The notes under the pieces were generated by a model, which was not told where the DNA came from, did no database searches, and saw only the letters and a list, made by a program, of their open reading frames with translations. From IMG/VR virus record IMGVR_UViG_3300046739_000137, positions 1 through 27,395 of that record: a DNA stretch of 27,395 nucleotides; one strand, given 5' to 3'. Below are positions 5,423 through 21,685 of the stretch, in pieces. This stretch comes from a virus (Duplodnaviria; Caudoviricetes). Each line of letters begins with the position of its first letter. The stretch's first letter is position 1. The position numbers and the translations under genes were made by a program.

Positions 5423-6519
5423 TGCCGCGCGACGGTTCAAACGTCTATCATATCCCGGCCGGCACTCAGGGTATTCCCGATCAGTCGATCGAGAGTAACA
5501 AGTACAACATTTTCATCGCCGACGTTGAGCAGGATCTTAATATCCCGCGTCCAATCATCGCTGGCGGCACCGGCGCCACCAATGTCGATGACGCGCTCAA
5601 CACAATGGGTGGTGAGAAGGCGTCACAGATCGTCACTAATTTCGATAGCCAGCTTTGGTATCCAGGATCGTTTTATGCGGCCAGCACCGCCACCAGCTCG
5701 CCAGTAGCCGGACACGCTTTTGTCGGGTGGGTCTACAGTTCCGATCCGCCGGCCGTGCCGCCGGCCAATAACAACCTGGTGGTCGAGGCGCGCGACCAGA
5801 ACGACACCGTTGTCCCCGGCAGCCTGTGGGTGCGCGAGAAGAAGGGCGGTGTGTGGGGACCGTGGACGAAACCGGCCGCAGCGCAGGCGCCGCTCGACAG
5901 CCCCGTGCTTACAGGAGATCCTCAGGTGCCGACACCGGCATCGGGTGATCATGACAAGAGCATTGCTAATACGGAGTTCGTAGCAAACAGCCTCATCGCA
6001 ATGGGAACGGTGCTGCAGACCAGCATCGACACCAAGGCGCCAATCAATTCGCCAGTACTGACCGGAGATCCGCAAGCGCCGGATCAGACAGCTGGTGATA
6101 ATGACCAAAGCATTGCCAACACCAAGTTCGTGAACGCTGCCATTGCCGCCGCGGCAACAGTTCACGCCACCGTTGCCGAATTTCGCGCCAACTCTGCGCC
6201 AACGCACGTTGTCGATGTCGGCACGGTGTGGGGGGCGGCTGCGCCGGTACTTCTGGTGAGTGGAGTAGCGCCAGATTTTTCGCTTGGTCTTGATTTTCAA
6301 ATATCTGGTGGAGGGTCAGTTACGGTTGCAAATCCGGTCAATACGAAAGTAGGTCAGAAGGGTGTTTTCATGATTGTCGGTCCGACTGCTACTTGGGGGA
6401 CTGCCTACAAGTTTGCCAATGGCATCAAGCCAACAACAACAGGCACTTGGAATGTTATTTCGTACATTGTCTGGGATGCCAGCAACATTCTCTGTTCAAC
6501 GGCATCGGCACTCAGTTAA
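5422..6519 (+). CDS. Tail fibre protein
   Basis: TAATG coupling, an IAGGTGAT motif and two AP.SPVLTGDP..P.....D.SIANT.FV tail-fibre repeats. Confidence 0.8.
   Translation: MPRDGSNVYHIPAGTQGIPDQSIESNKYNIFIADVEQDLNIPRPIIAGGTGATNVDDALNTMGGEKASQIVTNFDSQLWYPGSFYAASTATSSPVAGHAFVGWVYSSDPPAVPPANNNLVVEARDQNDTVVPGSLWVREKKGGVWGPWTKPAAAQAPLDSPVLTGDPQVPTPASGDHDKSIANTEFVANSLIAMGTVLQTSIDTKAPINSPVLTGDPQAPDQTAGDNDQSIANTKFVNAAIAAAATVHATVAEFRANSAPTHVVDVGTVWGAAAPVLLVSGVAPDFSLGLDFQISGGGSVTVANPVNTKVGQKGVFMIVGPTATWGTAYKFANGIKPTTTGTWNVISYIVWDASNILCSTASALS
5887..6132 (+). repeat. Two 32-aa tail-fibre repeats (5887-5982 and 6037-6132)
   Basis: APLDSPVLTGDPQVPTPASGDHDKSIANTEFV versus APINSPVLTGDPQAPDQTAGDNDQSIANTKFV. 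Confidence 0.85.
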
Positions 6520-8923: not shown

Positions 8924-9148
8924 ATGATCGAAGCAATCATCTATGCGCTGATTTACATTTGCTTGCTGGCGTTGGTGATCTACTTGATCATCTGGGTACT
9001 GCAGACGGTGGCCGGCATTGCCCTGCCACCCAAGGTCGTCCAGATTATCTGGATCATTTTTGCCTTGGTCTGCATTCTCATTCTTGTGAGGTTACTTCTT
9101 CCTCACTCAGGGCGGCTCCTGGGAGGCGTGTTGCCGCTGCTGGTTTGA
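8924..9148 (+). CDS. Small two-TM membrane protein, holin candidate
   Basis: GGAG RBS, two long hydrophobic helices separated by LPPK, located in the lysis region. Confidence 0.65.
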   Translation: MIEAIIYALIYICLLALVIYLIIWVLQTVAGIALPPKVVQIIWIIFALVCILILVRLLLPHSGRLLGGVLPLLV

Positions 9149-9173
9149 CGCAGACGTCATGCGCTGCGATAGT
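9145..9173 (+). promoter_or_regulatory. Sigma70-type promoter for the putative sRNA
   Basis: TTGACG (9145-9150), 17 nt spacer, GATAGT (9168-9173). Confidence 0.6.
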
Positions 9174-9178
9174 GCGCC

Positions 9179-9252
9179 AGCTCCGTTGTGATGAACGAGC
9201 TGTGTTGTGATCAGACGCCACCGGCCTCAGCCCCCGGTGGCGTTTGTTTTTT
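9179..9252 (+). ncRNA. Putative trans-acting antisense sRNA (~75 nt)
   Basis: Bounded by a promoter and an intrinsic terminator, with no credible ORF. The seed CTCCGTTGTGATGAAC (9181-9196) is complementary to five RBS-containing leaders in the window. Confidence 0.6.
9214..9252 (+). terminator. Intrinsic terminator ending the lysis/sRNA transcript
   Basis: ACGCCACCGG-loop-CCGGTGGCGT followed by TTGTTTTTT. Confidence 0.85.
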
Positions 9253-9266
9253 GACGTAGGTCAATG

Positions 9267-9288
9267 AAAAGCCGGCTTGCGCCGGCTT
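9267..9288 (-). terminator. Intrinsic terminator of the leftward operon
   Basis: Minus strand reads AAGCCGGC-GCAA-GCCGGCTTTT (GNRA loop). Confidence 0.7.
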
Positions 9289-9379
9289 GATGGTGTGAGC
9301 CCCCGCGGGCCTGATGGCACCCCTCGCGAGGGGCTGGCTGGCGGCCGCTTATTCGGGGACTAGCGGCCGCCAGTTGCAG

Positions 9380-9574
9380 TCAAGTCTCGCCGGGAATATT
9401 CCCGTGAGGCTCGTGCTCGCTGTTCCTGCGATTAACCCAGTTCTCGAGCGTGTTCTGGATCTCAGCAGCCAGGTCGTTGCGATCGACCTGGCTGTAAAAA
9501 ACAAACTCGTCAGCGAGGACGATTTCAGCCAACTTGCGGCAGTCGTCCTCGAACGGTTTTTTTTCAGCTCCCAT
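9380..9574 (-). CDS. Hypothetical protein
   Basis: 64 aa, ATG directly after the TAA of the upstream gene, AGGGGG RBS. Confidence 0.6.
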   Translation of the reverse strand: MGAEKKPFEDDCRKLAEIVLADEFVFYSQVDRNDLAAEIQNTLENWVNRRNSEHEPHGNIPGET

Positions 9575-9955
9575 TTATTTAGTCACCCCCTTTCTTGATA
9601 CTTTTTCGATGACCTCTTCCCAGCTGTCGCCTTCAGCTTTGACGAGGAAGAACATGCTCTCAGAGACACCAACGGTGATCTTGTGGCAGCGGGTGATGGA
9701 CGACAGCCGATCGGTCCTGTCGCTGGCGACGCGGTGTTCAGCAAACAGGCGTTGGTACTCCGCATCCGCCGCAATGATGGTCCGGTAGCGCTCGTCCTTT
9801 TGTTCTTTGAGCCTGCGGCGCTCCTCCACTGCTGCCGGCAACTCAGCTGCCGCCGCGGCCTTTTCTTCCTGTGTCGGCGCCTTGGTGTTGATGCGATAGC
9901 CCAGTTTCTTGCCAAGCAACTTGCCAAGCTTTTTGATAGCGACCGAGCGTTCCAC
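9575..9955 (-). CDS. Hypothetical coiled-coil protein
   Basis: Probable GTG start at 9955 (MERSVAIKKLGK...), just after the stop of the 57-aa gene. Confidence 0.65.
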   Translation of the reverse strand: MERSVAIKKLGKLLGKKLGYRINTKAPTQEEKAAAAAELPAAVEERRRLKEQKDERYRTIIAADAEYQRLFAEHRVASDRTDRLSSITRCHKITVGVSESMFFLVKAEGDSWEEVIEKVSRKGVTK

Positions 9956-9956
9956 G

Positions 9957-10130
9957 TTACTCGCCCTCGATGTCGAGATAGCGAACGACGTCAGCTGGCG
10001 TGTTGAACGGGATGCGACGACCCTCGTCGTCACGCACGTCCATGTGCGTCCAGCCGCCGGCAATGTGCAGGTCGTAGAACCAGCCCAGGCCGATAATTAG
10101 GCTCTCGTTGTAGGGTAGTGCTCGTGTCAT
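9957..10130 (-). CDS. 57-aa hypothetical protein, not in the ORF track
   Basis: MTRALPYNESLIIGLGWFYDLHIAGGWTHMDVRDDEGRRIPFNTPADVVRYLDIEGE. AAGGAG lies 7 nt upstream, and it is the first gene after a consensus promoter. Confidence 0.75.
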   Translation of the reverse strand: MTRALPYNESLIIGLGWFYDLHIAGGWTHMDVRDDEGRRIPFNTPADVVRYLDIEGE

Positions 10131-10159
10131 TGATCAGCTCCTTGTGATGAACAGGAGCA

Positions 10160-10188
10160 ATATAGGACAGTCTGGCAGCCTTGTCAAG
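10160..10188 (-). promoter_or_regulatory. Consensus alphaproteobacterial sigma70 promoter with an operator-like spacer
   Basis: CTTGAC-aaggctgccagactgtc(17)-CTATAT, nearly identical to the promoter at 21350-21378. Confidence 0.85.
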
Positions 10189-10193
10189 CGGTC

Positions 10194-10382
10194 CTATCTG
10201 TAGAGTTTCTGCGCCCGCTGATAGGCGTAGAGCGCGTCTTCCCTGGTCTTGTAATGACCCAGCGCCATGTTGCGGCCGTCGACGTAAATACGGCTCTTCC
10301 AATACTTGTAAATGCGCCGCCGGCCGGATCGCGTCGTATACTTGACCGTGACTTGGGTAACGCCAGCAGCTCTGCGCGGCAT
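10194..10382 (-). CDS. Stand-alone AP2-like DNA-binding domain protein
   Basis: AAGGAG RBS before ATG 10382. Sequence YWKSRIYVDGRNMALGHYKTREDALYAY matches the AP2 pattern. Confidence 0.7.
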   Translation of the reverse strand: MPRRAAGVTQVTVKYTTRSGRRRIYKYWKSRIYVDGRNMALGHYKTREDALYAYQRAQKLYR

Positions 10383-10440
10383 TCGTCTCTCCTTAATCCC
10401 TGGCGCGGGTGCCAAACGCCGCGCCAGGGTACTCGTTACG

Positions 10441-11208
10441 CTACGCTACAGTCATATCCTGACTGAGTTGCTTCTTGCGCTTGCGCATCAGCATGGCTAG
10501 TCCGCCCATGCCGGCGCCGAACAACCATACGGTTGCCGGCAACGGAACCTCTGATGGTGCTGCAAGCGGCTGGATGAAGAAGCTGTCAGGACCGTCGTTC
10601 GCGTTCTGGATGTTGGCAAAGAAGATCAGTTGGTCGCCCGCATGAATGTCCTGACCGATGGTGATGTTGAACTCACCCAGCGTATAGTCAGGAAACCCCG
10701 TGCCGTTGTTCTGCGTCGCGATGTTGCCGGTCGTCCCGCCGGTAAATGCTGACAACACGGTATGCGTTGTGAGGTTGAGCAGGAAGAACGACGACAGCGT
10801 CTGCGGGTTGTTGGCATCGTTGGCGTCGATACCGATCGTGAACGTCAATGTCGGATCACCAGTTGCGAGCAGATAAGCCCGCAAGAACGAACCGTCATAG
10901 CCGGTACCGACAGTGTTGGTGCCGGGATTGCCGCCACCGATCACGTTGGTCGAGAAGTACACCTCGCTGGTTTGATTACCGGCGTTGCCAAAGTTGGTGT
11001 AGCCGAAGGTGTTCGATTGCTGCGGCTGGTTGGCGCCGCAGATAATGCACTGGATGTTCTGTGGCTGGTTGCCGCCCGGCACAACCGGAGACAGGACGAG
11101 ATTGTCCACTCCGTTGAAGGACCAGTTCGTCCCTCCAAGCGTAATGTCAGCTTTCGCAGCCGTCGCAGCCAGCATGGCCACGGCAGCGAGTAGTAAGACT
11201 TTCTTCAT
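10441..11208 (-). CDS. Secreted VPLPA-CTERM (PEP-CTERM-type) surface protein
   Basis: Signal peptide MKKVLLLAAVAMLAATAAKA, N/T/G-rich body, C-terminal VPLPATVWLFGAGMGGLAMLM followed by RKRKK. Confidence 0.9.
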   Translation of the reverse strand: MKKVLLLAAVAMLAATAAKADITLGGTNWSFNGVDNLVLSPVVPGGNQPQNIQCIICGANQPQQSNTFGYTNFGNAGNQTSEVYFSTNVIGGGNPGTNTVGTGYDGSFLRAYLLATGDPTLTFTIGIDANDANNPQTLSSFFLLNLTTHTVLSAFTGGTTGNIATQNNGTGFPDYTLGEFNITIGQDIHAGDQLIFFANIQNANDGPDSFFIQPLAAPSEVPLPATVWLFGAGMGGLAMLMRKRKKQLSQDMTVA

Positions 11209-13012: not shown

Positions 13013-13096
13013 TCAGCCCTCCATTTATGTTTGGACAATCACACGTTTTGGACTAACGTGCAAGGGCAACAAAAACACTTAGCCGGGGTACCCCTC

Positions 13097-13513
13097 ATGT
13101 CGAACTGGACACCGCCCGTGATAAACCGATTTAGCAAGCTCATGCAGGACGCTAGCCTCGCTTTCTCCGACATCGCCAGCCGGTTATCGGCCGAATTCGG
13201 CATTCCTTTCACCCGCAGCGCTATCATTGGCCGTGCCAACAGAGAGGGCATGTCCCGCCCTACCGTGCGCTTGCGGCCGCAACGGCGAAAGAAAACCGCT
13301 GTGCAGATCGCCAGGACCAAGCCGCCGCGAAACGTCAGGGAGGCGTTGCCGAGTGGCGCCTACCTGCTCGAGAAGCTGGGCCCCGGCGACTGCCGATGGC
13401 CGACCGGAGATCGGTCGCCGTTTACATTCTGCGGCGCCGCCGTTGTCGAAGACAAGCCCTATTGCCGGCATCACGCACAGATGGCGTATCAAAATTGGCA
13501 GCGACGCCTGTGA
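13097..13513 (+). CDS. gcrA: GcrA-family transcriptional regulator
   Basis: N-terminal NWT...SDIASRL...TRSAIIGRANR helix-turn-helix and C-terminal CRWPTGD...FTFCG...PYCRHHAQMAY motif. Confidence 0.85.
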   Translation: MSNWTPPVINRFSKLMQDASLAFSDIASRLSAEFGIPFTRSAIIGRANREGMSRPTVRLRPQRRKKTAVQIARTKPPRNVREALPSGAYLLEKLGPGDCRWPTGDRSPFTFCGAAVVEDKPYCRHHAQMAYQNWQRRL

Positions 13514-14048: not shown

Positions 14049-14511
14049 AGCACAAGGCCTGCGCCAGGTTGTTGCCGCCACCAAGGCAAAGTATCGCGCC
14101 GCAGAAAAGCGCGCGGCGAAGGCGCCGATGGTGCCGACGCCGGCAGAAAAGAAGATGGCTGACCAGTACAAGCAAGTGCGCCACTACTACCGGTGGAAGC
14201 GATCGCTGATCAGGACACAACTAATGGGCCAGCAAAAAGAGCAGTGGAAAACATTGACGCGATTGCTGCGCACGATGACGATCGAAGACAGCGACAAGCT
14301 CATCAGCTATGTGCGCGGCGCCGCGTGGATCCACGATTTGGACGCCGAGGCCAAGCATGTCCTGCTGAGTGTCGTTGCGTCCGCCATCGTTCGCCTGCGT
14401 ATCGTCAACGGCTACGAGCCGTACGATGACGGCATCCCTGGCGAAGGGCCGACGGCGTTCATTACGATCCGCGACATGTTGACAAGGCAGACGACCCGGC
14501 AGAAGCTTTAA
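14032..14511 (+). CDS. Hypothetical protein
   Basis: GAGG before GTG 14032; typical codon usage. Confidence 0.65.
   Translation: MTNPFEAQGLRQVVAATKAKYRAAEKRAAKAPMVPTPAEKKMADQYKQVRHYYRWKRSLIRTQLMGQQKEQWKTLTRLLRTMTIEDSDKLISYVRGAAWIHDLDAEAKHVLLSVVASAIVRLRIVNGYEPYDDGIPGEGPTAFITIRDMLTRQTTRQKL
14479..14507 (+). promoter_or_regulatory. Putative promoter for the exonuclease gene
   Basis: TTGACA-17-GAAGCT. Shares TTGACAAGGC with the 10188 promoter and is followed by the leader motif. Confidence 0.45.
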
Positions 14512-14534
14512 TCGTTCATCACAAGGGAAATCTC

Positions 14535-15590
14535 ATGATCATATCCGATGCCCTGCATGCGTACGCCAACGCGACGCAGCCGGTGTTCTCCAAGGACGAT
14601 CGCGCGTCGACCGTCGGCGCCTCCGAGATTGGCCAGTGCATTCGCAAGATCTTCTGGACGAAGAACGAGGACGACAAGCGCCTGGCGGTGCCGCGCGACG
14701 AAGGCTTTGTCGACAGCTGGGGCGCACGGCGGCGCGGGACGGCGTTCGAGCAGCACTTCTGGGTGCCGGCGATGCGCAAGCGTTTCGGCAAGCGATTGAA
14801 ATTTGCCGGCAAGTCGCAGCGCACGTTTACCAAAGATTATTTATCGGCCACGCCAGACGCATTGATCGTCAACCTCAATGAGCGCGAGCGCGAAGAGATC
14901 GCCATCGATTGCGGCACCAGCGTCACGGCTGAATGCAAGACCGCAGATCCGCGCTCGAACCTGACAAACGCTAAGGCCGAAAACGTCTACCAGACGATCG
15001 TCCAGCTGGGACTGATCCGCGATACGACGCACTACCAGCCGACGCATGCGCTGCTCTCCTACACCGACGCCTCGTTCTGGTCGGAGGGTAAAGAATTCGT
15101 GGTGCCGTTCGACCAGGACATCTACGAGGCGGCGCACTGGCGCGCGACGGTGATCATGACCGATACGACGCTCGAGCGCATCCCGCCCGAGGGCTGGATC
15201 GCCGGCGGCCACGAATGCAAGTACTGCCCGTTCACCAAGGCCTGCGGCATCGAGCGGCGCAATTTGCCGTTCACCGATGACGAAAAGCCGCTCGATAGGC
15301 AGTTCGTCGCTGAGATCACAGACATGGCGCAAGTCATCAAGTCCGCGGAAGGAAGCCGCGACGCCTGCGACGCGCTGATGCGGACCACACAAGACGCCAT
15401 GAAAAACCGCCTGCGCGAGAAAGGCATCCGCAAGGTGCCTGGTGTTGTTGCCTGGACAAATGTGAAGGGGCGCGAGAGCTACGACAACAAGGCGATCCGC
15501 GAGGCGGCCGCCAAGGCTGGCGTCGATGTCGAGCAGTATCAAACAGTGGGAGAACCAACAGATCGGCTGACGATTTCGGTCAGCACATGA
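14535..15590 (+). CDS. Cas4-like PD-(D/E)xK exonuclease with 4-Cys cluster
   Basis: ASEIGQC, ATPD, ECKT, Q..VQ and CKYCPFTKAC give a 1+3 Cys arrangement around the nuclease core. Confidence 0.8.
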   Translation: MIISDALHAYANATQPVFSKDDRASTVGASEIGQCIRKIFWTKNEDDKRLAVPRDEGFVDSWGARRRGTAFEQHFWVPAMRKRFGKRLKFAGKSQRTFTKDYLSATPDALIVNLNEREREEIAIDCGTSVTAECKTADPRSNLTNAKAENVYQTIVQLGLIRDTTHYQPTHALLSYTDASFWSEGKEFVVPFDQDIYEAAHWRATVIMTDTTLERIPPEGWIAGGHECKYCPFTKACGIERRNLPFTDDEKPLDRQFVAEITDMAQVIKSAEGSRDACDALMRTTQDAMKNRLREKGIRKVPGVVAWTNVKGRESYDNKAIREAAAKAGVDVEQYQTVGEPTDRLTISVST

Positions 15591-15638
15591 AAACGGAGGA
15601 AAGCCTTGGCCATCGCGCCTTGGACGCGAGCAGCTCTG

Positions 15639-15745
15639 CCGAATGCAAAGCATCTGCTCCTACGATGTGCCCGACAACCTTGCATTCTTGGGGTCATCCC
15701 TCCGTCTAGGGGTGCCGGTGGGTTCAAGTCCCACTGCACCCCGCA
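15639..15745 (+). ncRNA. Structured intergenic RNA ending in a tRNA-like T-arm/acceptor helix
   Basis: GGGGTGC-C-GGTGGG-TTCAAGT-CCCACT-GCACCCC (15709-15742). Upstream stem GAATGCAA/TTGCATTC. Confidence 0.45.
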
Positions 15746-15795
15746 CTACCTCGCCAACATTCGTTGGCGAGAAAACACAACAGAGGAATAAAACA

Positions 15796-16575
15796 ATGAA
15801 CGAACTTTTGAAAAAGAACGGAAGCACAGATGTTGCGACAACTGGGCTGAACTTCTTTCAACAATACGGCGAAGCAACCCGACAGACGGCGATCGTCGGG
15901 CAACTGCTGAAGTTTTCCAAGGGCGATTGGACGGCCGGCCAGGACGACATGCCGATCGAGGAGGGAACGCAGTTGATCGCCAACATGGACGAGCTGCTGG
16001 TTGGCTGGGTGCGCTGGTCGCAGAACAAGCCAACCGATCACGTCATGGGCAAGGTCGTTACTGGCTACCAGCCGCCGCGGCGCAATGAGCTGGGCGACAA
16101 TGATCAGGACCAATGGGAAGTCGGCGACGACGGCATTAGCCGGGATCCCTGGCAGCTTACCAACTACCTGCTGCTGCAAGGATCGGAGGACGATCTCTAC
16201 ACCTTCACCACCTCGAGCAAAGGCGGCATCAATGCCGTCGGCGACCTGTGCGTGAAGTACGGCAAGCTGCTGCGCCAGCACCCCAACGACTACCCGGTGA
16301 TCAAGATCGGCACCGGCTCGTACATGCACCAGAACAAGTCGTACGGCCGCATCAAGTACCCGACGTTCGAGATTGTCGGGTGGGTGAAAAAGTCGGCGTT
16401 CGTGGAGACGGCCAGCGACGAACGGACAGCCAACGAGGTGAGCGAACCTGATGCGCCGTTCGACACGCCCGAGACGGTCGAGAAAAAAGCAAAGCAGGCA
16501 AAAAAGGTCATGACTGCTGCCGCAGTTGCCGCCAAGGCGCAGCCGGCGAAGGGTAAGACCAAGCCGCGGTTCTAA
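15796..16575 (+). CDS. Putative single-stranded DNA-binding protein
   Basis: GAGG RBS before ATG 15796. Motifs LLKFSKGDW, GWVRW, DPWQ, PTFEIVGWV and a low-complexity tail ending in F. Lies between exonuclease and primase. Confidence 0.55.
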   Translation: MNELLKKNGSTDVATTGLNFFQQYGEATRQTAIVGQLLKFSKGDWTAGQDDMPIEEGTQLIANMDELLVGWVRWSQNKPTDHVMGKVVTGYQPPRRNELGDNDQDQWEVGDDGISRDPWQLTNYLLLQGSEDDLYTFTTSSKGGINAVGDLCVKYGKLLRQHPNDYPVIKIGTGSYMHQNKSYGRIKYPTFEIVGWVKKSAFVETASDERTANEVSEPDAPFDTPETVEKKAKQAKKVMTAAAVAAKAQPAKGKTKPRF

Positions 16576-16590
16576 AGCCGCCATTCGTAC

Positions 16591-16626
16591 CCTTGGCGGG
16601 GCCGGCCTCCGCCAAGGTCTTTTTCT
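16591..16626 (+). terminator. Terminator/attenuator between the SSB-like and primase genes
   Basis: CCTTGGCGG-loop-CCGCCAAGG followed by TCTTTTTCT. Confidence 0.7.
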
Positions 16627-16641
16627 GTCGGGGGAACGACC

Positions 16642-19197
16642 ATGACTGAAGCGGAAGGGGCCATTGCTTTTGTCGCTGAAGTATTCGGCGACCCGATTAC
16701 TCAAGGGCCGATCTACTTCTCCAGCCTCGCCAACGAGCGCGATGGATCAGGTGAGATCCGCCTTTCGACGCGCGACCAGGAGCAGGTCGCCATGTTCATC
16801 AAGAAAAACGATCGCCCTGGCCGCGGCATTTTCGTCTGCGCCGGCACGGTCAACGGCAAGCGCAACAAGGACAATATCCTCGAAAGCGCGGCCATTTACA
16901 CCGACATCGACTTTAAAGACCACCCTGGCGTCCCGGCGGAGGCTATCCGCACTGCCATTGGCCGCGCCAAGTTGCCGCCCTCGATCGTGGTCAGCACCGG
17001 ACACGGCTACCACGTTTGGTATTTGTTCCACGCCGCGGTCAACAGCCAGACCTACCGTGACAGGCTAGAAAGTCTGCTCCGTGCGTTGGCGGTCCATTTT
17101 GGGGGCGACCCCCAGGTCGCTGAGATTAGCCGCCTGATGCGGCTCCCTGGGACGCACAACACCAAGTACGACAGCTGGGTGCCGGTGACAGCCGAGATCA
17201 CCCACGGTAATCGGTACTCGCTTAACGATCTGGAGGGGTGGCTACTCACCAACACTAGACCGCTACTCCAGCGGCGCGCCGTTATCGGTCCCCCCGACCC
17301 CGGCGGCGCGCCGAACCCTTTCCTGGCGGCCGCAGCCGCGCAGGGCTACAAACCGCCGATCGACGTCGAGGCCATGCTCGAGGCCATGGTGCCGGGGACC
17401 ATCAATGAAACCTTGGAACGGTGCACGGCCGCCTTGTTGTCGCGCGGGGAACCGCTCGAGGAGGTGCTGGCGGCTGCCATGGCCGCCTTCCGCACCTGCG
17501 CCGAGAAGCACGGTGCTACCTACAAGTGGAAACACGAGGAACGGAAGTGGCGCCGTGAGTGCCGGCGGTGGCTGGAGAAGCACCCCGAGCTGCTCGAGAA
17601 GCAAAAAGACGGACAGCCTGACCGTAAAAAAGCGACTAATTTAAATCTGTCGGCCGGCACAGAAAACGTCGTTGACCTGGGCGAGGCGCGCGCCAAGCGC
17701 AAACCGAAACCCAAGCCGACCACTGGCGACACGCCGTACATCGTGGCCGATGGCGTCATCCAAGCGCTACATGACAACCGCGAAGACCTGATGCTCACCG
17801 AGGGCGAGGTGTGGCTATATCAGGATGGGTTCTGGCGGATCCTTACCCCCAGCGACGAGCAGCGGCTGCGTGGGCTGATCCAGACCGGGTTCGAGACGAT
17901 CGAGGTGCAGCCGCGCGGTGCACAGCTGGCGCTCGCTTGGACGCGGCTGACGCAACACCCAAAACTTTACCAACAGGACGTCCCCTGGGCCGACGCCGGC
18001 ATGATCGTCTGCCGCAACGGAGTGCTACGTATCGAAACCGGGCATTTCGACAGGCATCAACCCGACACCTACGCGCGGCGGCATGTCGGCGCGACATTCA
18101 CGCCGGGTGAAACATGCCCCGTGTTCGAGCGGCTGCTGGCCAGCATGTTCTGCGATCGGCCGGACGCGATCGCGCTGATTAACCTGATCCAAGAGTGGGC
18201 CGGTGCTGCGCTAGCGATCAGCTCGCTGTCGCGCGAGCAGCGCCGCGCATTGGTCCTGGTCGGTCCATCGCGGACAGGCAAGACCGAACTGGCCAGGATC
18301 TTCGCCCTGCTCCTGGGCGACCCGATTGCAACGCCGGCCGTGTCGGAGCTGGGCGAGCGTTTCGGCCTCTCGAGCCTCTATGGCGCTACGGCCTGGATCC
18401 GCGACGATGCCATCAACGAGGGCGACAAGCTCGACCCGCAACGGTTCAAGACGATCGTCACCGGCGAGCCGATCAACATCGAGCTGAAAGGCAGGCATGT
18501 TATCCAGAACGTGCGGCTCAATACGCCAGTGCTGCTGACCTGCAACAGCCTGCCGCGAGCGCGCGACGGCTCCGATGCGATCTTCAATCGGTCGATCGTT
18601 CTCGAGATGACCAGCGTCGTTGCCGATGAGGAAGCAAAGCGCGCGCGCACCGAGATCCTGGGCAAGGCCGGCGACGTCAGCCTAGGCGCCGGTGTGTTCG
18701 AGAAGGAAAGCGCCGGGATCCTCAATTGGGCGATCCTGGGGCTGGCGCGGCTGCGCCGGCGTGGGTTCTACGACATCCCCGAGAGCGTCGCGACGGCGCT
18801 GCAGCATTTCAAGGACGAGAACAATCCGGTCGGCGAGTGGGCGCGCGAGGCCGTCGCGGTGGCGAAGGGTATGAAGGTGGAACGGCGCGATTTGGTGCGG
18901 TCGTACAATGGCTGGGAAACCGACATGGAGGGCGACGAGGCGCGCACGGTCGGCGGCCGCTGGCTACTGCCCAAGCTGCGCGCGCGCATTCCCGGCCTCG
19001 GTGACATCCAAGGTGATGGTGGCCGGCGCTACATCACCGGTATCAAACTAACCGATGTCGGCAAAGCGGCTTGGGACAGTTACGCCAAGGCGTCGGCCAA
19101 GCCGGGAGGCTTTGCGGCGACCTCAGCCGACATCAACCAGATCAATCTGCCAGATGGACAGGATGGACAGGATGTCAAAAACCAATCACGTTTTTGA
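16642..19197 (+). CDS. RepB'-type AEP primase fused to a D5/P4-like SF3 helicase
   Basis: Primase motifs DIDFK, STGHGYHVWY and RLMRLPGTHNTK. Helicase Walker A GPSRTGKT, WIRDD and motif C LTCN. Confidence 0.88.
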   Translation: MTEAEGAIAFVAEVFGDPITQGPIYFSSLANERDGSGEIRLSTRDQEQVAMFIKKNDRPGRGIFVCAGTVNGKRNKDNILESAAIYTDIDFKDHPGVPAEAIRTAIGRAKLPPSIVVSTGHGYHVWYLFHAAVNSQTYRDRLESLLRALAVHFGGDPQVAEISRLMRLPGTHNTKYDSWVPVTAEITHGNRYSLNDLEGWLLTNTRPLLQRRAVIGPPDPGGAPNPFLAAAAAQGYKPPIDVEAMLEAMVPGTINETLERCTAALLSRGEPLEEVLAAAMAAFRTCAEKHGATYKWKHEERKWRRECRRWLEKHPELLEKQKDGQPDRKKATNLNLSAGTENVVDLGEARAKRKPKPKPTTGDTPYIVADGVIQALHDNREDLMLTEGEVWLYQDGFWRILTPSDEQRLRGLIQTGFETIEVQPRGAQLALAWTRLTQHPKLYQQDVPWADAGMIVCRNGVLRIETGHFDRHQPDTYARRHVGATFTPGETCPVFERLLASMFCDRPDAIALINLIQEWAGAALAISSLSREQRRALVLVGPSRTGKTELARIFALLLGDPIATPAVSELGERFGLSSLYGATAWIRDDAINEGDKLDPQRFKTIVTGEPINIELKGRHVIQNVRLNTPVLLTCNSLPRARDGSDAIFNRSIVLEMTSVVADEEAKRARTEILGKAGDVSLGAGVFEKESAGILNWAILGLARLRRRGFYDIPESVATALQHFKDENNPVGEWAREAVAVAKGMKVERRDLVRSYNGWETDMEGDEARTVGGRWLLPKLRARIPGLGDIQGDGGRRYITGIKLTDVGKAAWDSYAKASAKPGGFAATSADINQINLPDGQDGQDVKNQSRF

Positions 19198-20989: not shown

Positions 20990-21035
20990 GGTCGCGTTCT
21001 CCGGTTGTGATGAACTGGTGGGAGGAAACGGCAGC

Positions 21036-21323: not shown

Positions 21324-21349
21324 GTGTTTTCTCCGTTGCGATGAGGCTG

Positions 21350-21378
21350 ATATAGGACAGACTGTCAGCCCTGTCAAG
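21350..21378 (-). promoter_or_regulatory. Leftward consensus sigma70 promoter
   Basis: CTTGAC-agggctgacagtctgtc(17)-CTATAT. Confidence 0.85.
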
Positions 21379-21391
21379 TGGGTTCTGACAT

Positions 21392-21420
21392 ATTGACAGC
21401 CCTGTCTGGGTGGCCTAAAT
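21392..21420 (+). promoter_or_regulatory. Rightward promoter of the HTH gene (back-to-back with the leftward one)
   Basis: ATTGAC-agccctgtctgggtggc(17)-CTAAAT. Confidence 0.7.
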
Positions 21421-21448
21421 AAGGGCATCGCAACAGAGGAGCTGAAAA

Positions 21449-21685
21449 ATGTCTGATTGGCAGAAAGAGCGGTTGATGACGCCGCGGCAATACAAGATGA
21501 TTATCAAGGAGTTAGGGCTCAACAAGGCGTCGGCCGGTCGTTATGTGGGCGTGTCTGGCCGTACCTCGCATCGCTACGTCAGTGGTGATGCCGAGATACC
21601 GATCGCGACGGCGCTGCTGCTGCGATCGCTGGTGGCGCATGGTGAGACGCCGGTGGTACCTAAGTGGAAACGGGGGGATAACTGA
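21449..21685 (+). CDS. Small XRE/Cro-like HTH regulator
   Basis: GAGGAG RBS. Sequence MTPRQYKMIIKELGLNKASAGRYVGVSGRTSHRYVSGDAEIP...LLL. Confidence 0.8.
   Translation: MSDWQKERLMTPRQYKMIIKELGLNKASAGRYVGVSGRTSHRYVSGDAEIPIATALLLRSLVAHGETPVVPKWKRGDN

Follow-up and report, generated by a model that had tools for sequence, protein, structure and literature searches.

What is the function of the short interval at positions 9145 to 9252, where a promoter and a terminator enclose a non-coding stretch at the end of a phage late operon? The first-pass annotation had read it as a small RNA (sRNA) gene whose product silences an early regulon by covering the Shine-Dalgarno (SD) sequences of five dispersed genes. 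The window, by which we mean the whole stretch of DNA that was analysed (27,395 nucleotides), is 27.4 kb out of the 42.9-kb genome of a podo-type phage; a complete, near-identical genome with direct terminal repeats (G001) was examined along its full length; integrase, resolvase and ParA were all looked for in it and not found. Because the window encodes a GcrA-family protein (13082-13513, + strand; Pfam PF07750, E 8e-18), and because relatives of the phage terminase occur in Bradyrhizobium and Rhizobium genomes and phages, the genome contents point to an alphaproteobacterial host. The GcrA-family protein, also encoded by most sRNA carriers, could rewire sigma70 promoters. Matching DNA came from soil and rhizosphere metagenomes, and the matching datasets listed included no RNA run. 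Four DNA runs confirmed the window sequence, with no variant within 9145-9252 among the matches listed, and a related contig was found without 9251-9330 and 9373-9959.

The promoter, the non-coding stretch and the terminator were all present as annotated. The sigma70-type promoter (TTGACG-17-GATAGT; 9145..9173, + strand) has its -35 box at 9145-9150, overlapped by the stop codon of a small membrane gene (8924..9148, +) that is the last of the late operon and that we infer to be holin-like from hydrophobicity and position; the -10 box lies at 9168-9173. Transcription starting 6-7 nt past the -10 box would yield an sRNA of about 74 nt (9179..9252, +). A predicted seed hairpin (9178..9202, +), with the loop GUGAUG at 9188-9193, an anti-SD 5' arm (GCUCC), a bulge and GUU/AAC, is followed by a variable G/U-rich linker with a second UUGUGAU (9203..9211, +), not conserved in homologs, and by an intrinsic terminator hairpin with a U tract (9212..9252, +; stem 9212-9246, T run up to 9252). 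Folding of the whole RNA gave z = -4.5 to -5.0, with none of 200 shuffles equally stable, and the AUG inside the loop opens no conserved reading frame (7-202 codons across 20 genomes). On sequence evidence, the locus has the features of a trans-encoded base-pairing sRNA, namely its own promoter and an intrinsic terminator without a conserved ORF. The sRNA terminator was absent from the output of a simple terminator scan of the window, and Rfam gave no match at the locus in the window (E<=5) or at four homolog loci (E<=3). Beyond the sRNA, a GC-rich hairpin at about 9265..9288 (-) is likely the terminator of the converging leftward early operon, and a further GC-rich hairpin lies at 9299-9336, between the sRNA and that operon.

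Related phages were searched for the same unit. A promoter-plus-leader search gave 37 viral loci, and 17 records were examined whole or nearly so. All seven large relatives picked by their leaders (28-44 kb; G006, G007, G010, G011, G012, G013 and G015) carried one reverse copy of the leader motif with a promoter and a terminator; relatives that keep the motif and lack the antisense copy, which the first-pass annotation had named as evidence against its reading, were thus not encountered among them. The leader-bearing records without the sRNA, G002 (68% complete) and G044 (87%, ending at the holin), are partial contigs that lack the locus or end before it. Searches with the seed recovered the unit, judged by eye, in 19/63 and 7/8 viral loci (overlapping sets, with three loci identical to the window) and in 19 of 80 fetched metagenome loci (at least 119 matched). 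The terminator reached -22.9 kcal/mol or lower in 18 of these 19 metagenome loci, vs -15 kcal/mol or lower in 4 of the 61 other matches. In total, 40 loci have the unit, with 30 distinct arm sets. Homologs retain the promoter hexamers, GUUGUGAUG-R-AC and a 5' arm rich in pyrimidines, and the spacer, the linker (about 5-60 nt) and the terminator are free to diverge. Homologs found by the seed alone keep TTG/TAG, A2 and T6 around a freely varying promoter spacer; the promoter is tested by the viral set only, as TTG, A and T had partly entered the selection of the 19 metagenome/locus matches, and since most homologs were found by seed search, the invariance of the seed is partly circular. No nucleotide match to the sRNA locus was found in cultured phages, and a search of bacterial genomes returned nothing. 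Neither of the nearest terminase relatives in culture carries the sRNA (RHph_I3_18, at 62% and with an annotated integrase and repressor C; ppBjS10J-1, at 59%), nor does a prophage region of B. oligotrophicum; the best score was 16.6 bits. The sRNAs of G006 (17683-17757, -) and G049 (37563-37620, -) carry CATCAC, complementary to the loop, at their own 5' end, predicted to allow an alternative, self-masking fold.

These loci bear on a simpler explanation, namely that the interval is only the terminator of the late operon beside a chance or relic inverted leader. The unit does follow the last late gene and face a converging operon in many genomes, and the promoter pattern by itself occurs in the window at chance level (4 found vs 5.0 expected). 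Against this, the upstream gene is divergent in five genomes (G043, G067, G011, G013 and G070), so that the unit stands alone and is not merely the 3' end of a late operon; the promoter hexamers are conserved around a free spacer, and the arms covary. We regard a mere late terminator as extremely improbable and are highly confident that 9145-9252 is a real sRNA gene.

The targets proposed for the sRNA could be checked directly. Near-copies of the seed complement cover, on the coding strand, the SD of all five genes named by the first-pass annotation, which start at 14535(+), 10130(-), 20992(-), 21323(-) and 21449(+). When the sRNA was paired with 54 curated start regions of G001, the one genome for which such a list was made, the five leaders took ranks 1-5, as the annotation had expected. 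Rank 1 went to the promoter TTGACA-17-TATATT with the leader GTTCATCACAAGGAGCTG (10135..10187, -), ahead of a 57-aa gene (10130-9957), and rank 2 to TTGACA-17-GAAGCT with its leader (14479..14528, +), ahead of a RecE-like exonuclease gene that heads an exonuclease/SSB-like/primase run. Rank 3 is an internal leader without a TTGACA promoter (20999..21015, -; 91-aa gene 20992-20717), rank 4 is TTGACA-17-TATATC with its leader (21331..21377, -; 95-aa phage protein, 21323-21036), and rank 5 is a divergent promoter, TTGACA-17-TAAATA, with its leader (21393..21444, +; Cro/C1-type HTH gene, 21449-21685). In four of the five cases the leader starts only a few bases from a TTGACA promoter and forms the first bases of its transcript, and the -35 box of the sRNA promoter is weaker than theirs. 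Just upstream of the promoter of the 57-aa gene lies a small AP2/HNH-endonuclease-like fragment gene (10194-10385, -; PHROG 99). The early region also encodes a PEP-CTERM-like secreted protein (10441-11208, -; weak Pfam match), a gene that was considered as a sixth target and rejected (net -3.1 kcal/mol).

Pairing energies of the five leaders ranged from -28.0 to -24.2 kcal/mol, a gap of 7 kcal/mol separating them from the sixth start region (-17.4), with the remainder at -11.8 +/- 2.3. The ranking was equalled by none of 500 seed shuffles that kept the anti-SD arm and by 2/500 random genome 20-mers. With the full folded sRNA, the five leaders remained at the top (net -18.4 to -10.8 kcal/mol; next -9.5). 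The result holds when the search is restricted to start regions; an unguided, ungapped scan of the whole window allowing G-U pairs did not single out the five, being swamped by GC-rich G-U matches. The pattern CATC[AG]CAA..GGAG/GGGA, chosen after the fact, occurs seven times in the window, whereas 300 dinucleotide shuffles yielded 0.07 occurrences on average and never more than 2; the seven are the five leaders, the complement of the sRNA itself and one site within the tail-fibre gene. This last site (about 5993-6006, +) matches TCATCGCAATGGGA in sense orientation, probably by chance. Computationally, the sRNA shares with GcvB the pairing with a CA-rich enhancer beside the SD of several mRNAs.

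The leaders were then compared across 30 terminase relatives at least 90% complete, with carrier status taken from model R1 and inspection. Leaders tagged with CATCAC ahead of the SD numbered 1-6 (mean 3.4) in the 13 carriers, nine of which, G001 among them, had entered via leader or seed searches, and 0-2 (mean 0.4) in the 17 non-carriers; the subset picked by terminase alone held 4 carriers of 20. When a TTGACA promoter was also required, 9/13 carriers and 1/17 non-carriers qualified. With leaders selected by promoter only, CATCACA was found within one mismatch in 33/48 leaders of carriers, leaving 15/48 without the tag, and a near match occurred in 2/7 promoter-led leaders of integrase-bearing non-carriers. 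Two cultured temperate relatives had one loose leader match each and no sRNA. When automatic gene calls were used, tagged leaders were not top-ranked in G011, G038, G039, G049, G067 and G070; the automatic caller missed starts. The first genes behind tagged leaders mostly encode small, variable, phage-only proteins, the commonest family (9 genomes) being that of window 21323-21036, and the tag is retained while the first gene changes. Its position ahead of the HTH gene and of the exonuclease-primase run, seen in the window, is not shared by most relatives. The replication module has been exchanged between carriers (window 14535-19197 vs G007 19200-14800, with the sRNA and HTH gene retained); the window has a D5-like primase-helicase, and G007, G038, G049 and G078 have the Prim-Pol/AAA type. 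In many relatives, PEP-CTERM-like genes are found close to the sRNA, and those of G038, G039, G068 and G069 are tagged.

The leader consensus is CATCRCAAC-GGAG. A rival reading takes the tag and the 9.2-kb copy as one DNA palindrome, GTT-N6-AAC, in opposite orientations, to which the HTH protein of the phage would bind at promoters without any RNA pairing. Many leaders are indeed palindromic around CATCAC: 13/27 fold around it at <= -3 kcal/mol, with arms that covary with the SD (p 0.0005), and an HTH homolog is encoded by all 13 complete carriers (vs 3/17 non-carriers). However, leaders invariably have CATCAC as the spacer where the terminator-flanked copy has GTGATG, many leaders have no left half of the palindrome, and the conserved terminator would be left unexplained. 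Moreover, the motif follows the SD and not the -10 box (sd of the spacing 1.8 vs 4.3) and is also found at internal genes without a promoter. An operator for the HTH protein is therefore a very improbable reading of the tag. The promoters of the targets offer another candidate operator for this protein. They are alike beyond their hexamers (TTGACA-[AG]GGCTG..., with TGACAG/CTGTCA repeats), with three copies each in five genomes: the window, at 10159-10187(-), 21349-21377(-) and 21393-21421(+), and the relatives G007, G010, G012 and G015. Two of these repeat-bearing promoters form a divergent pair.

The leader fold may have a role of its own. In many leaders (window 10135-10158(-), for example), the stretch that separates the -10 box from the tag is complementary to the SD, and about half of the leaders can hide the SD in a fold if the bases just past the -10 box are transcribed. 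Such a fold could provide a kissing-loop start for pairing or silence read-through transcripts, for which T4 gene e is the model (PMC3014915). Activation of translation by opening this SD hairpin was considered and rejected, as the sRNA itself covers the SD.

If the sRNA and the leaders pair as RNAs, they should change in step, and we found that they do. In an arm-swap test on 23 distinct arm sets, the 3' arm of each sRNA fitted its own stem better than foreign arms did (-8.1 vs -6.2 kcal/mol, residual -1.8; 0/20,000 permutations). Column covariation in a fixed register was not significant (41/500 and 128/500 shuffles equally high), because the stem bulge shifts between homologs; a second fixed-register test, its register poorly chosen, was also negative. 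For the leaders, the sRNA 5' end preferred those of its own genome in 11/11 lineages (mean -1.96 kcal/mol, 0/50,000 permutations), with the reservation that the leaders were selected by motif and that similarity in base composition may contribute. The 11 are the lineages with distinct 5' ends, four of 15 genomes having been dropped: three have a 5' 20-mer identical to that of a retained genome, and G078 comes from an error-prone contig and gave the sole clearly positive residual (+2.1) in a looser version with all 15 (mean -1.5, 0/20,000). The changes can be read in single genomes: CCUGUU in the sRNA of G066 matches ACAGGAG leaders, CCGUU in that of G006 matches ACGGAG in 5/5 leaders, and CCGUGUGAUG in that of G049 matches CAUCACAC leaders. 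A conserved seed complementary to unlinked targets, both changing in step, is again a property of trans-encoded sRNAs. The covariation looked for by the first-pass annotation thus exists as own-genome fit and is not significant in fixed-register stem columns. Its observation that A-to-G variants would form G-U pairs fits all five tag substitutions (5/5 A>G), a weak argument alone, as most transitions are wobble-compatible.

The same data bear on the possibility that the leaders are translation enhancers only and that the sRNA, although real, aims mainly at CA-rich leaders of the host, as GcvB does, or serves to titrate Hfq or S1. CA-rich leaders act as enhancers in general, which speaks against a leader-specific reading; ACA motifs are described both as enhancing translation and as the target of GcvB (PMC3879156), and a constraint from outside the phage would account for the invariant seed. 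Yet the full tag, TCATCRCAA..GGAG, occurs only 0-2 times per genome in five candidate hosts of 5-8 Mb, and a lineage-specific fit to the leaders of the phage itself would not be expected. We judge a host-directed role to be improbable and consider that the sRNA probably pairs with and represses the five phage leaders. The original proposal of one sRNA silencing an early regulon is strongly supported, as to a free-standing gene and its pairing, by conservation, co-occurrence and own-genome fit; repression is expected from the coverage of the SD.

A further question is whether such repression serves lytic growth or immunity. Integrase was found in none of the 13 carriers and in 14/17 non-carriers (0/4 vs 13/16 in the terminase-picked subset), and ParA in none of the 13 complete carriers. 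The terminase tree (built in quick mode; 36/44 records with a usable terminase) groups the carriers in a single supported clade with 19 rows, in which G022 and G046, integrase phages without the sRNA and without the leaders, are nested. Since the carriers are essentially one clade, the genome counts are not independent, and the sRNA/integrase pattern amounts to about three independent changes, not thirty. With timing and lifestyle judged by the absence of integrase and ParA only, the carriers are apparently virulent podophages. One whole carrier phage, with the sRNA and three leaders, lies within a 1.27-Mb MAG contig (G078 C1, about 776,900-819,300); the contig is labelled Actinomycetota, is long-read and has frameshifted genes, the phage has no integrase or att repeat, and the break is inside an operon, so this is probably an assembly chimera.

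The mutual exclusion of sRNA and integrase, including the absence of both sRNA and leaders from the two nested integrase phages, would also suit an sRNA that keeps an unintegrated resident phage quiet or excludes superinfecting kin in place of an integrase/CI module. Small RNAs serve P1, P7, P4 and N15 in this way (PMC3632133), and a common seed would act across lineages. On the other hand, the carriers show no ParA and no means of stable maintenance, the sole embedded carrier is the probable chimera, and the seed has not diversified as immunity determinants do, 4 nt being described as separating P1 from P7 (PMC5320573). We therefore consider a carrier state or exclusion unlikely, and equally so the broader idea that an RNA master switch replaced the integrase/CI module in a non-integrating podophage clade, acting with the HTH protein in unintegrated persistence or kin exclusion, as a recurrent design that would also explain the SAS repeats discussed below. 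The immunity part of the first-pass annotation found no support, the carriers having neither integrase nor ParA and the seed not diversifying between lineages as C4 specificity does. Given leader pairing and repression, lytic shut-off is somewhat favoured over immunity as the main role.

Taken together, a trans-encoded, multi-target sRNA that blocks the CA-rich enhancer and SD of early mRNAs, probably for early-gene shut-off, is the reading that we hold to be likely. The host sigma70 polymerase would transcribe the RNA of roughly 74 nt, as its conserved promoter and terminator suggest. The GUGAUG loop would nucleate on CAUCAC, the tag that the strongest early leaders have immediately before the SD; the stem, which is weak and always bulged or mismatched, would then open, and pairing would zip via the ACAA enhancer into GGAG, giving a computed duplex of 14-18 bp over the ribosome-binding region, a mechanism modelled on GcvB and C4. 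Translation of the first gene in each early transcript would be blocked, and decay or polarity downstream would probably be hastened. Such an sRNA could act as a delay timer, in which host-takeover proteins, the HTH protein and, for this phage, replication proteins would first be made in an early burst and then be shut off jointly; this is the likeliest use, because the sRNA promoter is weaker than those of its targets and a structured sRNA should outlive the mRNAs. The sequence itself shows the seed, the targets and the compensatory variants that occur in nature, so the 74-nt RNA and its five leaders are testable at once.

The N15 counterpart of the c4 and CI RNAs is the CA RNA. Like P1/P7 c4 and P4 CI, the present sRNA would be a phage RNA whose loop pairs with targets and occludes the ribosome-binding site (PMC5320573, PMC3632133). 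C4, as described in PMC5320573, has three stem-loops with two seed loops (a' and b'), is cut by RNase P from a longer transcript and serves lysogeny, whereas the present sRNA has one seed hairpin and a terminator, dispersed targets, integrase-less carriers and no Rfam C4 match; its own promoter and terminator argue against RNase P processing. By these features it is not a member of the C4/CI family. Like GcvB, it would silence several targets at ACA enhancer motifs that immediately precede the SD (PMC3879156). GcvB is an enterobacterial host gene controlling amino-acid transport, unlike the phage sRNA, whose seed occupies a hairpin loop and continues into the SD, and its Rfam family gave no match at the locus or at four homolog loci; the sRNA is predicted to work like GcvB on the regulon of its own phage, a likeness of function and not of family. 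SviR, VpdS, PreS and sar likewise provide trans or multi-target regulation (SviR paper, PMC12197685) but are directed at a helper phage, at host mRNAs or Hfq, or at a single target in cis (PMC12197685), and none of the sRNAs in the available parts of PMC12197685 and the SviR abstract mirrors a shared leader of its own early regulon. Our literature search found no description of the sRNA or the leader motif, and four supplementary files of PMC10690425 (10,000 candidate viral RNAs) gave no match, a source that may list the sRNA unnamed in its alignments. The sequence comparisons thus describe a phage sRNA family that is real, conserved and uncatalogued, and that is predicted to control several early leaders of its own phage. 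To our knowledge, a function has been assigned to few sRNAs of virulent phages.

In its effect, the proposed shut-off resembles T4 RegB, which jointly inactivates early mRNAs at the SD and so eases passage to later phases (PMC3014915); RegB is a protein nuclease and the present agent would be a base-pairing RNA, which makes this a functional analogy only. If confirmed, the sRNA would do by RNA what RegB does in the early-gene shut-off of T4, or would stand in, as an RNA, for a lysogeny repressor. In architecture, the sRNA and its leaders resemble the SAS/ESAS of cluster K mycobacteriophages, a repeat that includes an SD, precedes non-structural genes and frequently follows a conserved promoter; four K1 phages have a single reverse copy of it that is not at a gene start (PMC3203893, PMC11373665). 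The phages studied here have the same arrangement, an SD-containing repeat at non-structural starts and one reverse copy, and the likeness is one of architecture only: sequence and host are unrelated, SAS phages are temperate, and the leader consensus differs from the 13-bp SAS consensus GGGATAGGAGCCC (PMC3203893). In the available parts of the SAS papers, the role of the repeats is called unknown and the reverse copy is not described as an sRNA gene (PMC3203893, PMC11373665, PMC12699233). For these repeats, whose role was still given as unknown in 2024-2025 (PMC11373665, PMC12699233), the present sRNA offers a direct hypothesis.
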